Assembly: GCA_021513715.1 (NCBI GenBank)
Contig: CP084167.1
Coordinates: 896,001 to 960,000 of the forward strand
DNA length: 64,000 nt
Direction of reading: 5' to 3'
Source: Candidatus Heimdallarchaeum endolithica
Lineage (GTDB): Archaea; Asgardarchaeota; Heimdallarchaeia; Heimdallarchaeales; Heimdallarchaeaceae
Of this stretch, positions 27,599 through 32,952 are shown one piece after another. How positions within the stretch are numbered: position 1 is the first letter of the stretch; each line of letters begins with the position of its first letter. A model generated the notes under the pieces. It was not told where the DNA came from. It ran no database searches and saw nothing but the letters and a program-made list of their open reading frames with translations. A program made the translations under genes and the position numbers.

Positions 27599-27869
27599 CT
27601 ATTTTGGATATTTTTTCTTGTTTTTTTGTAATTTATTTATTATAGCTTCTTCTAAATTTATTCCTAGGATTTCAGAAAGAGCGAATAAATATATTGCCAC
27701 ATCTGCAAGCTCGTCAGATAAATTATTCTTATATTGCTCACTAGTTAATTCGTTAAATATTTCTTCATCTGTTTTCCACTGAAAAAGCTCAAAAAGTTCT
27801 GCTAACTCTATTGAAATAGATAAAGACAGATTCTTTGGTGTGTGATATTTTTTCCAATCTCTCTCGTCT
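27599..27869 (-). pseudogene. MazG-like nucleotide pyrophosphohydrolase, 3' part (interrupted by IS)
   Basis: DERDWKKYHTPKNL, EXXE (ELAE), DELAD, KKKYP. Confidence 0.85.
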
Positions 27870-28070
27870 GTGACTTCTCCCACCTCTGAAGAGGGTGGGC
27901 TTCTCGATTTATGTTGGACATACATTTGTTGACCTCCATATCGACGGTACAGCCACTGCACCAATACTCTTCGACAAGTTGTTGTCTTGGAGATACTTTT
28001 TCAGGATGTTTCGTGCCCCGTTCTGGTCTGCGTTCAATGTTGTATTACAGTTTTTGCAGACGTATAGGCC
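27870..28070 (-). ncRNA. predicted TnpB omega/reRNA scaffold (5' boundary approximate)
   Basis: By analogy with characterised IS200/IS605 elements it overlaps the tnpB 3' end and right-end hairpin; the guide would come from the flank below 27870. Confidence 0.5.
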
Positions 28071-29120
28071 ACGGTGTTTCCTATTGCTTTTACGTTTTGT
28101 TCCACACACACTACAAGTTTGGCTTGTATATTGTTCGCTCACCTTTTCTACCCGTATGCCAGACAACCGTGCCTTATGGGTTATCTGTTTGGTGAGTTTG
28201 TTGAACGACCAACTGTGTAGTTTCTGTCCAGATTTCTTGTTCCAATGTTTTCCTTTCCTGATGTTCTTTATGTCTCCTATCACTATTGTTCCAACCTTGT
28301 TCTTTTTTGCCTCCTCCACCACACTCTTTGATGTAGTATGGAGTATCTGGTTTACCTGTTGCTTCTTCTTTCTATGCATCCGCCCTATCGCTTTACTGGT
28401 TTTCTTTCCGTGTTGTTCCATCGTTGCTCGTTGAACACGTGCTATTTCCTTATTGAAATAGTGTTGGACTGCCAATGCTTGTCCACCACTATATATCGTG
28501 GAGTTCCCATTGGTATCAACGGTTGTTGCGAGATTAACTATACCCAAGTCCACCCCCATAATTCCATCATCGCTTGTATAAGGTGGCTCTTCTACTTCAT
28601 ATACAACATGAACCATCCATTTCCCATCTCGACATAGGATGGTTGCCATCTTCGCTATACCTTCTATCTCCCTCCATAGTGTTAGTTTGAACTGGAGTTT
28701 CTTTATGCCTGTCTCTTTACGATATTTTCTACTCATACTGAACCTTATAGTGTCACCATCCAGTTTGAATTGTTGGTAGAATATCAATGGCGACAACTTT
28801 TCCTTGGGTCTGAACCCCGGGGGGTGTGCTTTATCATCGGTTTTACGCAGTCTATACCAACTATTATATGCTTCTTGAAGTTCCTTACAAACTCGTTGAG
28901 CCGTCTGGCTTGGTAACAGTTGATACCAATGGTTCTTCCGCAGTAACTTTTTCTGTTCATACCAACTTGGTATCTCCCCTGTCTCCTTCCATGCCTTCCT
29001 CCGCTTATAATTATCTGTGTTATACAACTTGGTAGCATAAAACCCCAAATCACATAGTGTTGTTTCTTGTTTGGGTGTTGGATATATTCGATACTTGATA
29101 CACTGCTTCAAATATATCAC
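27909..29120 (-). CDS. tnpB: TnpB RNA-guided endonuclease
   Basis: YRIYPT N-terminus, RuvC GVDLG / VIGD / NADQNGARNI, Zn finger CSVC...CKNC. Confidence 0.95.
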   Translation of the reverse strand: MIYLKQCIKYRIYPTPKQETTLCDLGFYATKLYNTDNYKRRKAWKETGEIPSWYEQKKLLRKNHWYQLLPSQTAQRVCKELQEAYNSWYRLRKTDDKAHPPGFRPKEKLSPLIFYQQFKLDGDTIRFSMSRKYRKETGIKKLQFKLTLWREIEGIAKMATILCRDGKWMVHVVYEVEEPPYTSDDGIMGVDLGIVNLATTVDTNGNSTIYSGGQALAVQHYFNKEIARVQRATMEQHGKKTSKAIGRMHRKKKQQVNQILHTTSKSVVEEAKKNKVGTIVIGDIKNIRKGKHWNKKSGQKLHSWSFNKLTKQITHKARLSGIRVEKVSEQYTSQTCSVCGTKRKSNRKHRGLYVCKNCNTTLNADQNGARNILKKYLQDNNLSKSIGAVAVPSIWRSTNVCPT

Positions 29121-29888
29121 ACTCCCTTCTGTTCTTCAATATATTTCTGAATGGTCTTATCCAATACGTGACCGTGAGTTGATATAAAATATCTCCATGT
29201 CCATAGTGTTGGCAATCGTGTAGTCAGTTCTTTGAACTCTCTACGAAGTTCGTGTGAAGTATAGCCCTTTATCTTGCCAATTATCTTATTCGGCGTTAAT
29301 TCAGGGTCGCCCTGTATGAATAGATGAACATGGTCTGGCATAACCTCCAATGTAATAACCTTGCAACCCATCATCTCTGCTCTCTCATATACCAATTCTT
29401 TCAACCTATCTGCCACATCTCCAACCAATACCTTCCTACGATATTTAGGGCACCATACAAAATGGTATCCTATGAAATGGACGTTTGTGAGGTTCGCATC
29501 ATATCCCGATGAGTCGAAATTTTAATTAATTTCTTCAGGACTCTACCCAATCAGTCAACAAATATGTCGTAATTTTGAAGACTGGTTTAAGAGAACATGA
29601 AAGACACAGTCTTAATTTAGTTCTCTAATGGGTTCATCTCCTGATCCAGGGCACTCATAATTCCCACAGGGAAGACCGGGTGTCGTAGGAATGAAACCTA
29701 CGTCTTTAAGCATCTAGCTCAAGACAAATAATCAATGAGAATTGAGTATATTAAGATCACTGAAAAGTTGTGACGCTCACCAATATCTTGCATTCTTTAT
29801 TATTGAAATGTGATTCTGATTGTTATTGGTTTAATAACTCCTCTAACTAAAAATTTAGCTTTTTACGTAAAAAAGAATTCTATGGCAT
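29117..29888 (-). pseudogene. tnpA: Y1 transposase TnpA interrupted at codons 2-3 by an insert
   Basis: YHFVWCPKYRR, HUH (DHVH), YIEEQ; no ATG/GTG/TTG start upstream of the conserved N-terminus unless ATG CCA TA (29888-29881) is joined to T GAT GCG (29501 downward). Confidence 0.75.
29505..29880. mobile_element. 376-bp ORF-less structured insert nested in tnpA, flanked by TAT direct repeat
   Basis: TAT at 29502-29504 and 29881-29883; removal restores MPYDANLTNVHFIGYH...; multiple hairpins; no TIR. Confidence 0.6.
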
Positions 29889-29912
29889 ATTATAGTATAT
29901 GGTTCCCACCCC

Positions 29913-29918
29913 ATATAA
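29913..29918 (-). promoter_or_regulatory. putative TATA box for leaderless tnpA
   Basis: TTATAT 24 nt upstream of the restored ATG at 29888. Confidence 0.45.
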
Positions 29919-29976
29919 GTGGTTCTATCTCGCTCTCATCCCACGACTAAAGCCGTGGGGTTTCCCGCTCTCGTCT

Positions 29977-30020
29977 CTAAATTCCACGATTATTTTAGTC
30001 AACTCTTCAATATTTGTCAA
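29977..30020 (-). pseudogene. MazG-like gene, 5' part
   Basis: TTG-start MTNIEELTKIIVEF-AG; joining to 27869 restores EFRDERDW and a 104-aa ORF. Confidence 0.8.
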
Positions 30021-30046
30021 TTTAATCAAAATAAAAAAGAGAAGGG

Positions 30047-31117
30047 TTAGATAATTTTTTCTATCCAACCATATTTATCTGGTTTTTCTCCTGTTTGTAT
30101 TCCTATTAACTCGTCATAAAGGTGTTGAGTGATTTTACCTATCTCAAAGTTGTTTATTTGATAAGTTTTACCTTTGTAGAACAATTCACCTACAGGAGAG
30201 ATCGAAGCCGCTGTCCCCATACCAAAAGCTTCAGTACATTCTCCATTTTCTATTTGTTCTAGAAGTTTCCTTAACTCTATTTTTGTTTCTTTAATTTTGT
30301 ATCCAAGATCTTTAGCTAGTTGTATTACTGATTTTCTTGTTATTCCATGTAAAATAGTTCCATCAAGTTCAGGAGTAAGAATTTCTTCGTTTACAACAAA
30401 GGCAATATTATTTGTTCCTACCTCTTCTACATACTTTCTTTCAATAGAATCGAGCCATAATACTTGGCTATAACCTTGTTTCTTGGCTATCTCTGTCTCA
30501 GATAGTGTTCCAGCATAATTTCCTCCTGTTTTTGCTTCTCCTGTTCCTCCTGGAGCTGCACGAATGTGTTGGCTAGCAACATAAATTTTCGTTGGATTAA
30601 ATCCTGCCTTAAAGTATGGACCAACTGGAGATAGAATAATGTAGAAATAAAATTCGGCACTACTATGTAATCCTATTGCTGGCTCTGTTGCGATCATAGT
30701 AGGACGGATATAAAGCGACGTTCCTTTTTCTTTTGGAACCCACTCCTTGTCTAATATTATTAATTCCTTAATTGCTTTAACGAATAATTCTTCATCAACA
30801 GTAGGCATACACATTCTTTCAGCAGAACGATTGAACCTTTTAGCGTTCTCATATGGACGAAAGAGGTTTATACTTCCATTTTGAGAATAGAACGCTTTCA
30901 TTCCTTCAAAAATTTCCTGACCATAATGAAATACTGCACATGCAGGATCAAGAGTAAACGGTTGATAAGGTATAATTTGAGGTTGACCCCATTCTCCATC
31001 TTGATATTTCATTAAAAACATGTGGTCAGTGAAAAATCTACCAAAAGGTAAATGATGCATATCTTTTGGCTTTTCTTTTAATTGTTCTGGGGTGCATTTA
31101 TTGATGATTATATCCAT
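30047..31117 (-). CDS. ilvE: branched-chain amino acid aminotransferase
   Basis: HYGQEIFEGMKA, LYIRP, AKTGGNY, EEVGTNN, ILHGITR, GTAA. Confidence 0.95.
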   Translation of the reverse strand: MDIIINKCTPEQLKEKPKDMHHLPFGRFFTDHMFLMKYQDGEWGQPQIIPYQPFTLDPACAVFHYGQEIFEGMKAFYSQNGSINLFRPYENAKRFNRSAERMCMPTVDEELFVKAIKELIILDKEWVPKEKGTSLYIRPTMIATEPAIGLHSSAEFYFYIILSPVGPYFKAGFNPTKIYVASQHIRAAPGGTGEAKTGGNYAGTLSETEIAKKQGYSQVLWLDSIERKYVEEVGTNNIAFVVNEEILTPELDGTILHGITRKSVIQLAKDLGYKIKETKIELRKLLEQIENGECTEAFGMGTAASISPVGELFYKGKTYQINNFEIGKITQHLYDELIGIQTGEKPDKYGWIEKII

Positions 31118-31224
31118 TGTGAGCCACAATAGAAGTAATTACTTAAAAGTCTTTATGTTAGAAAAAGAATTTAATATAAACAATTAAAGGTTTAACAAAC
31201 AAAAAATAGAGAAAAAATAAAAAA

Positions 31225-32952
31225 TTAGGAAATTGAAGATTCCCTAACTATGCATATAATAGGAGAATTAATTATAGAATATTCTTCTAGCGAAGAATTT
31301 TGGACATTTGCAAAAACAAAAGATAAACTTGTTCCAACAGAGAACGAGGAATTAACTTTTCCAACTATTGAGAAGATACCTGTAGAATTTATTACTACTC
31401 TTGAATAGTTTTCTTCAGTCTGGGTAATCGAAATCTGTGAATTTAGTTCAGTTGAATTTACAGAATAAATGTAGCTGAATGAATCGAAATAGCCATTATT
31501 GTTTGAGTCATATATCAGACTATTAAAGATGATAATGTTAATATCAAATTCTTCAGGAATATTTGTATAGGAGGAGCTTATGTTCATTACACAAGAAAAA
31601 GTACCATTAGTGAAAATATCCATTTGTTCAACAGTAATGGTCGAATTAGCTTCCCAATGGGGATAGAATATTTTTCCCCCATCAAATAAATTGTTGCTAC
31701 TGATTGATGAAAGAAAGGAAATAAGTGGAAAAGGAATACAAATTAGTAATATAAGTAGAGATGTAAAAAAAACTTTTTTAGCAGATGGAGAGAGTTTAAA
31801 ACTTTTTTTGGTTATTTGTTCAGTAATTTTTTTGATCAGTAGAAAACTTTTTGCCTTTTTATTTTTCCAATATTTAAGTACTTCAAATAGAATAAGAGGA
31901 AGATAGAATAAAAGAAATATGACAAAAAGAGCTTTTTCAAGAGTGAAAGGAATATAATCTGTTGAAGGTATTGAAATACCAAAAAGTATGATTGTAGTTT
32001 TAACTGCTACCTGAGAAACGTGATGATTCCAAAAAGATACAGAATACAGGAATAAAACAACAAAAACAATTGGTGAAAGAACTAGCTTTACTAATGATAA
32101 TTTAGTTGAAACAGTTTTTTCTAAATCGTTTTTTGTTTTATTCTCTATCGCAGGTTTTTTTGAGATCTTTTCTAGAAGGAAGTTTAGAAAACTATAGATT
32201 ACAATATTAACAAAGATAAAAAGAACATACCATAAAATAGCAAATCTGGAGAAAAATAGGCTAAAAGTTCTACTTAAAGCTACAAAAAACACACCTATAA
32301 AACTGATAGCAACAGAAGATAAAACTGGAAGATTTGACATTCTATCAATTACATAACTGATGTTTTGATTCTCACTATTTCTATTTAATTGTTCTTCAGG
32401 AGAAAATAGAAGAATTAATCCTTCAAAAAGTAAAACTAAAGGAAGTAAAAAAGAACTGAGAATAAATAGAGGATTAAATGTTAAACTAAAATAAAAGGAA
32501 GAGTTTTCGATCATTTTGATTAACCAAAAAGCTGTCATTGCTATTTTGTAGTTATATATTAGAAACAAATAATCAGTCAATTTAGAAAAAGCAAACATAA
32601 TCAAGAAAATACCTGTCTTTCTTTTATTTATAAAAACAAGATAATTTATTGCCAACACAACAAATATAGTAAATAAAGCTAAAAGAATGAAAGAAAACAT
32701 AGATTCATTTGTGCTCTTAATAGTAGCTAAAGAATATTGAATCGTTGCTTTATCTTCTCTTAATTGAGTTGAAGAAATATAAACTCTTCCAAAAACAAAG
32801 GAAGTTAGATTGGCCGTAAAAAGGTTCAAAAACGACAATACTAAGGATATTAAATTTAAAATTAAGACTGTTAGTAATACAATTTTTTTTCTCATTTTCT
32901 TCACTTGGTCAACATCTATCCCTAAAATAGCAACCTTTATTAATATTTCCAA
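31225..32952 (-). CDS. multi-pass membrane protein with C-terminal extracellular domain
   Basis: Many TM segments followed by an S/N-rich beta domain with N-x-S/T sequons. Confidence 0.65.
   Translation of the reverse strand: MEILIKVAILGIDVDQVKKMRKKIVLLTVLILNLISLVLSFLNLFTANLTSFVFGRVYISSTQLREDKATIQYSLATIKSTNESMFSFILLALFTIFVVLAINYLVFINKRKTGIFLIMFAFSKLTDYLFLIYNYKIAMTAFWLIKMIENSSFYFSLTFNPLFILSSFLLPLVLLFEGLILLFSPEEQLNRNSENQNISYVIDRMSNLPVLSSVAISFIGVFFVALSRTFSLFFSRFAILWYVLFIFVNIVIYSFLNFLLEKISKKPAIENKTKNDLEKTVSTKLSLVKLVLSPIVFVVLFLYSVSFWNHHVSQVAVKTTIILFGISIPSTDYIPFTLEKALFVIFLLFYLPLILFEVLKYWKNKKAKSFLLIKKITEQITKKSFKLSPSAKKVFFTSLLILLICIPFPLISFLSSISSNNLFDGGKIFYPHWEANSTITVEQMDIFTNGTFSCVMNISSSYTNIPEEFDINIIIFNSLIYDSNNNGYFDSFSYIYSVNSTELNSQISITQTEENYSRVVINSTGIFSIVGKVNSSFSVGTSLSFVFANVQNSSLEEYSIINSPIICIVRESSIS

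Follow-up and report, generated by a model that had tools for sequence, protein, structure and literature searches.

A probable omega-RNA-only mini-transposon in the only Y1 transposase gene found in Candidatus Heimdallarchaeum endolithica

In the 64,000-nucleotide stretch of the Candidatus Heimdallarchaeum endolithica genome that we analyzed as a whole (the window), the first codons of a Y1 tnpA gene (Pfam Y1_Tnp, E 1e-38) are interrupted by a segment without an open reading frame, which, judging from sequence comparisons, is very probably an omega-RNA-only mini-transposon. We place a probability of roughly 0.85 on this reading, which includes derivation from a tnpB element; use of its guide by a TnpB supplied in trans and movement by conservative recombination centered on an AT dinucleotide are proposed steps. 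The insert would be a deletion derivative of a Heimdallarchaeaceae tnpB transposon that lost tnpB while retaining both ends, the omega-RNA scaffold, and a probable promoter. On the minus strand these parts follow one another as left end, TATA-like box, scaffold, right end, and host flank as predicted guide (Table 1).

Table 1. Coordinates (window positions) of the mini-transposon, its parts, and the surrounding host element
Feature	Positions	Strand	Basis
Whole mini-transposon with both CAT/ATG cores (373 bp plus one core)	29509..29884	-	Sharp ends in 16-copy alignment; excision gives 132-aa TnpA; empty sites of other copies
Left end: target CAT (29884-29882), then imperfect terminal inverted repeat with TTTTACGTAAAA palindrome	29860..29884	-	Same layout at left ends of tnpB-only families
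Right end: terminal hairpin/inverted repeat plus ACUCAU pseudoknot strand adjoining the predicted guide	29509..29533	-	25/25 tnpB-linked scaffolds end AACTCAT or AACTCGT
tnpA 5' stub (ATG CCA T); Met-Pro-stop in inserted allele	29882..29888	-	Translation
Candidate TATA box ~25 nt before conserved RNA block, consensus CTTTATAT, one change in window copy	29746..29755	-	Conserved in alignment; putative promoter function from consensus match
Probable omega-RNA scaffold, ~217 nt, putative 5' end	29509..29725	-	nhmmer match 29660-29534, E 1.9e-7 in window, 1e-5 in genome
5' strand of terminal pseudoknot (AUGAGU)	29653..29658	-	Pairs with terminal ACUCAU, 32/32
Core helix, 5' side (UCAGGA, GAUGAA, CCC)	29630..29644	-	Pairs with 29548-29535
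Core helix, 3' side (GGG, UAGAG, UCCUGA)	29535..29548	-	Same two-sided-change test
Predicted guide: host flank, tnpA codons 3-9	29489..29508	-	Expected from TnpB omega-RNA biology (PMC10691335)
Host IS605 element, Y1 tnpA plus tnpB	27861..29967	-	Single copy in genome; absent at site in three public runs
Remainder of Y1 tnpA	29117..29508	-	Only Y1 transposase found in genome
Intact 403-aa tnpB of host IS605; TnpB group differs from owner of the insert's RNA	27909..29120	-

The insert extends from ATG to ATG on the plus strand (CAT on the minus strand), with both cores (29509-29511 and 29882-29884) included, and the alignment of all 16 close genomic copies shows an ATG at the start and at the end. 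Deletion of the insert minus one ATG restores a 132-aa TnpA beginning M-P-S-G-Y-D; TnpA homologues are 132 aa long in 95 of 120 cases, and they typically start with MP(K/R)GY. An earlier note on this DNA had recognized an element without a long open reading frame in the first tnpA codons, a claim that holds with the limits shifted to 29509-29884. The same note took TAT as the repeated sequence and derived from it a 130-aa TnpA beginning MPYD; however, to obtain MPYD, 379 bp must be deleted, two host codons among them, and a TAT core is contradicted by the ATG ends of the 16 copies and by the 132-aa homologues. A TATA-like sequence (CTTATAT) is present 24 nt upstream of the ATG at 29888, as had been noted for the restored tnpA start, and the palindromes (29516-29533 and 29860-29873) and hairpins (29684-29702 and 29822-29838) previously listed within the insert all exist as written. 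Relative to shuffled sequences, the insert has a folding z-score of -3.45 on the plus strand and -2.09 on the minus strand.

Translation of the inserted tnpA allele yields Met-Pro-stop while tnpB is intact, which bears out the proposal that the transposase is knocked out and tnpB spared. This silencing looks accidental because other copies of the insert occupy unrelated host genes; the hit in tnpA would be an ordinary insertion in a CAT target that happened to inactivate the genome's only Y1 transposase. The host IS605 is itself a polymorphic insertion, as contigs of three public sequencing runs (X2, X3, and X4) join 27860 directly to 29968. Coverage in these runs was patchy, and the insert's own site in tnpA was spanned by none of their contigs. 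Present as a single copy with a broken tnpA, the host IS605 is now stranded. Its right end overlaps the start region of a MazG-like gene (27599-27964).

The Ca. H. endolithica genome is a single contig of 3.33 Mb and contains 16 close and 2 diverged full copies of the insert, plus several remnants (15 full copies besides the window copy by BLAST). The genome of the sister species, Ca. Heimdallarchaeum aukensis, contains 12 matches, and for three copies we identified orthologous empty sites with a single core. The multiple copies and empty sites agree with the earlier suggestion of a nonautonomous mobile element with a structured RNA. Insertions are seen in unrelated genes and in either orientation. 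On the minus strand of the window, all 16 copies have CAT as target, with G as the next base in 11; because a few relatives use GAT or AAT, only the AT is invariant. At insertion junctions, nothing beyond this AT or CAT core is repeated.

In a typical copy, 17 of 26 terminal positions form inverted ends of the form CATG-N7-TTTTACGTAA, and the corresponding values in tnpB-only relatives are 19 to 21 of 26. The absence of terminal inverted repeats reported for the insert therefore describes the decayed window copy (10/26) but not the typical one. With 85-87% identity to the other close copies, which are 92-99.7% identical among themselves, the window copy stands furthest from the rest, and both of its ends have changed; on these grounds, it may be immobile. 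A search of both closed genomes and 12 metagenome matches revealed no autonomous parent element, and pattern scans of metagenome and viral contigs for such a parent returned only protein-less copies or chance matches.

The relationship to tnpB emerged from two weak matches to the insert in related genomes, both located just downstream of tnpB and oriented as the minus strand of the element. We built an nhmmer profile solely from 25 regions located downstream of tnpB in other genomes of the family, and used it together with pair counts in place of a covariance model. All 25 regions end in AACTCAT or AACTCGT, as does the mini-element, and in the 3.3-Mb genome the profile matches all 18 full copies, close and diverged, and nothing more (E 2e-7 to 3e-3), with no match in the reversed genome. 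Within the window copy, the scaffold is richer in G+C than the left part of the element (39% vs 26%) and nearer to the family consensus (197/217 vs 133/159). In the core helix, 25 cells are changed on both sides, a value that none of 500 shuffles reached, with kinship of the sequences inflating the contrast, and the pairing is lost when one strand is slid in the joint alignment. Covariation, which had been suggested as a check, is thus seen in this helix, on a minus-strand omega-RNA fold. In 32 of 32 sequences, the terminal ACUCAU pairs with AUGAGU in the interior of the scaffold, a count that is uninformative alone because the sequence hardly varies; however, in 22 of 23 copies of resident tnpB family 2 the pair is swapped to AUGAUU/AAUCAU. 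A pseudoknot adjoining the guide forms the conserved core of TnpB RNAs (bioRxiv 10.1101/2023.08.09.552727). We infer the promoter, the transcript start, and the guide length of the mini-element RNA; the predicted target of the guide is the tnpA allele without the insert, with CAT as the TAM. An exact match to CAT plus guide was found nowhere else in the genome for any of the guides.

The tnpB elements whose RNA is closest to the mini-element scaffold are in other genera. Their TnpBs have a TnpB/Cas12f fold, and at RuvC-II they show G-x-P, followed after 55 residues by an invariant glutamate (G347 and E402), a rearranged site that has been described for Fanzors and TnpB2 (PMC10530073). Named homologues of this owner TnpB are from Heimdall or Thor archaea, except for one labeled Aenigmarchaeota. 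Within the Ca. H. endolithica genome, two tnpB-only families are of the owner type, one with ~14 copies and the other with 2, and two groups of canonical TnpBs likewise occur in transposase-less elements. These tnpB-only families have inverted ends (CATG-N7-T-run) and an AT core of the same form as the mini-element, and close relatives of the CAT-core families were found almost only in Heimdallarchaeaceae. No transposase is located beside tnpB at the examined loci (neighbors of tnpB family 2 homologues, and family 4).

Several further observations concern these elements. Inverted ends and a CAT or GAT core are seen in at least four tnpB-only families (L023, L024, L181, L189, and genome positions 598141-599385), two with the Fanzor-type rearranged active site and two canonical. 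In the sister genome, a tnpB-only element begins at an internal CAT of a mini-element copy (L018:1501-3151). At three loci (L141:5489-9751, L142:4935-9734, and L112:3-1700), a protein of 1400-1600 aa is encoded divergently beside a related tnpB; it has no family match and a possible PD-(D/E)XK motif, and the hosts are more distant and probably thorarchaeal. This protein and its TnpB possibly form a stable TnpB partner system.

Evidence on how the mini-element moves was obtained from rearranged copies. A metagenome contig (L177, 1778-2155) carries the orthologue of the copy at genome position 2922001, in which the first 151 bp are inverted; the inversion is exact between the AT at the terminus of the right end and the AT in the internal pseudoknot strand, and both junctions are joined with nothing duplicated. 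One of the two inversion junctions was also found in another assembly (L173, 3835-3974). In addition, the element's single internal CATG marks the end of four independent remnants from two genomes. Together, the AT-to-AT inversion and the CATG remnants suggest conservative recombination at AT. Remnants of 92 bp ending at the internal CATG are located at genome positions 1184271-1184362 and 1375194-1375285 and on contigs L122 and L123. At 1375194, a stretch of a host gene, presumably encoding a pyroglutamyl peptidase, seems to be deleted up to a host CATG.

Serine recombinases typically use a 2-bp crossover (PMC6188088), and the mover, acting in trans, is probably an enzyme of this kind. The genome encodes one tyrosine recombinase and two stand-alone chromosomal serine recombinases (genome positions 405348-406097 and about 316728-317447) with intact catalytic motifs and the catalytic domain first, and these two were the sole candidates identified; for one of the two, the best fold matches are Bxb1 integrase and the ISC1926 TnpA (IS607-TnpA-like). 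Both serine recombinases (L022:5349-6098 and L021:6729-7562) are located in conserved chromosomal contexts, never beside tnpB, and they are present in 26 of 26 genomes of the family and in 0 of 43 others of the class. We regard it as less likely than not that one of these two enzymes moves the mini-element, as the link comes from a single clade and from elimination and the candidate is circumstantial. Elimination covered several other enzyme types. The single-contig genome contains no IS110 domain and no intact Y1 TnpA, the only Y1 match being the interrupted gene. We also considered aCas1 as mover and rejected it: none was found in the genome or beside any examined locus, and a gene for a protein of 1420-1599 aa beside thorarchaeal tnpB has neither a Cas1 match nor a homologue in this genome.

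A doubtful but arguable alternative is that the omega-RNA mini-element is a classical MITE whose mobilization depends on a DDE or Cas1-like transposase producing a short target duplication (AT, CAT, or CATN); this enzyme would be too diverged to be recognized or would have been lost. Its ends do include terminal inverted repeats, and the palindromic core is compatible with either a 2- to 3-bp duplication or a crossover core. However, the ends of the mini-element have nothing in common with those of any of the four multi-copy DDE families in the genome, which we take to be IS5-like, IS481-like, IS6-like, and ISH3-like, and Cas1 matches above the family cut-off are located at or near CRISPR-Cas loci. 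At the two junctions of a copy, the base adjoining the ATG core is often identical (C/C in 12 of 14 and T/T in 6 of 9), which could also speak for a MITE, as a 4-bp duplication would yield such a correlation (Fisher p 0.02, from copies that are not independent). The bases compared are those at window positions 29508 and 29881 and their counterparts in the other copies. In tnpB-only relatives, however, the left end keeps its G while the right flank varies, and thus no 4-bp duplication is made. DDE-associated TnpB elements typically have terminal inverted repeats, and thorarchaeal relatives of the owner TnpB end in a GTTCACTCA-like motif reported for aCas1-associated TnpBs (PMC10691335); against this, the large gene beside the thorarchaeal tnpB is the one named above that lacks a Cas1 match and a homologue here. 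A reciprocal inversion involving a single end fits conservative exchange better than it fits a MITE.

The scaffold could instead be a dead passenger in an element that spreads via its ends only, its RNA being used by no TnpB in the cell. We consider this unlikely, although two observations are in its favor: the two closed genomes contain no cognate tnpB with a closely matching RNA, and the genome offers none of the guides a second exact target. Conservation of the RNA argues against it. Diverged subfamilies retain the scaffold while replacing or shortening the left part, and nested stems are kept by two-sided changes among protein-less copies. Moreover, the resident tnpB-family RNAs have their architecture in common with the mini-element scaffold, including, in family 2, the swapped pseudoknot pair, but the nhmmer profile does not match the RNAs of families 2 and 3. 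The earlier note had drawn a different pseudoknot from two crossing 7-bp stems; both stems exist, but this is not the best-supported fold, as stem B has no compensatory change, one of its pairs is broken in 7 of 20 copies, and the nested stems on the same bases are those that show two-sided changes.

Three further leads from the earlier note fared less well. A nonautonomous element of the IS110/IS1111 type with a bridge or seek RNA would have a short repeated core, subterminal inverted repeats, and a structured RNA, as here, but it is very improbable given that the closed genome lacks an IS110 transposase, that the RNA has its homologues downstream of tnpB, and that targets have only CAT(G) in common where a longer guide-defined target is expected. 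A self-splicing intron or IStron-like RNA restoring the tnpA mRNA, suggested by the many copies within genes and the structured RNA, can practically be dismissed: Rfam gave no match on 28500-32500 down to E 1, copies lie in both orientations relative to host genes, and an omega-RNA accounts for the conserved part. Mobilization of a palindromic element by Y1 is at odds with the inverted ends, the AT core, and the fact that the only Y1 TnpA is the broken one.

For the tnpB-derived omega-RNA mini-transposon, we propose the following cycle. Each copy would be transcribed on the minus strand into the scaffold plus ~20 nt of host flank. A TnpB acting in trans (resident family 2 or 3, whose RuvC-II is rearranged) would next cleave the insert-free allele behind the CAT TAM, and this cleavage would favor retention or homing of the copy. 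Movement would take place as double-stranded DNA by conservative recombination at the central AT, in which an excised circle with a symmetric site, inverted arms around C-AT-G, would recombine with CAT(G) targets. A broader and speculative extension, which we think more likely wrong than right by a wide measure, is that Heimdallarchaeaceae harbor transposase-less elements of one family, made up of no fewer than four unrelated tnpB groups and the omega-RNA-only derivative, that converge on inverted C-AT-G ends and depend for their movement on a vertically inherited host serine recombinase of a shortened large-serine-recombinase type; the transposons would thereby hijack a host enzyme, and RNA-only copies would program resident Fanzor-like TnpBs in trans.

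The mini-element provides a natural scaffold, a predicted CAT TAM, and ~30 natural guide junctions for an uncharacterized Asgard TnpB clade with a Fanzor-type active site, and the nuclease of the owner clade is directly testable because these parts are supplied. At 373 bp, it is also the smallest substrate for finding the mover of CAT-targeting elements in these archaea. If the host's own serine recombinase is the mover, this would be a mode of TnpB mobilization that we did not find described in the literature searched.

Among known systems, the aCas1-associated Asgard TnpB loci (Cas1H-Asgard-1/-2; PMC10691335) resemble the present elements through the GTTCACTCA-like motif of the thorarchaeal relatives, but differ in that no aCas1 was found beside the examined loci or in the genome. 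The likeness to TnpB2 and Fanzors (PMC10530073) consists in the G-x-P at RuvC-II and the downstream glutamate of the owner clade; at RuvC-I this clade has DLG, whereas DPG is typical of Fanzors, and the likeness is one of active site, with no Fanzor ancestry claimed. Elements of the IS607 group (IS607, IS1535, ISC1926, and ISXfa1) exchange at an invariant dinucleotide with no real duplication (PMC6188088), their TAM includes the core, and their omega-RNA has a pseudoknot beside the guide (bioRxiv 10.1101/2023.08.09.552727). In the mini-element the AT is likewise invariant, GAT and AAT targets included. However, IS607 elements have no terminal inverted repeats and a GG dinucleotide in the studied cases, whereas the mini-element has inverted ends and an AT core; IS607 elements also carry a linked tnpA with an N-terminal DNA-binding domain, whereas here there is no linked tnpA and the recombinases have the catalytic domain first.

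Both stand-alone omega-RNAs and PATE-like derivatives of IS200/IS605 that encode omega-RNAs have been described (PMC10691335; Meers et al., PMC10055086). Like stand-alone omega-RNAs, the insert combines homology to tnpB-downstream sequence, a terminus at the right end, a pseudoknot, multiple copies, no protein gene, and a fixed left TAM. Like PATE-like elements, it is found as protein-less mobilized copies that keep both ends and the omega-RNA, take the guide from the flank, and need an effector and a transposase in trans. The ends are where the two differ: PATE-like elements have Y1-type ends, with asymmetric subterminal hairpins but neither inverted termini nor a repeated core, and are moved by HUH TnpA, whereas the mini-element has imperfect terminal inverted repeats around a palindromic C-AT-G core that is present at both junctions, unlike the hairpins of the host IS605. 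The concept of a stand-alone omega-RNA is thus already known; this analysis adds corrected limits for the insert, the swap in the pseudoknot pair, evidence from the inversion and the remnants, and a candidate recombinase identified by name. The mini-element works like stand-alone omega-RNAs and PATE-like elements but differs from them in its ends, and the inverted ends and AT core point to a serine recombinase, possibly one encoded by the host.
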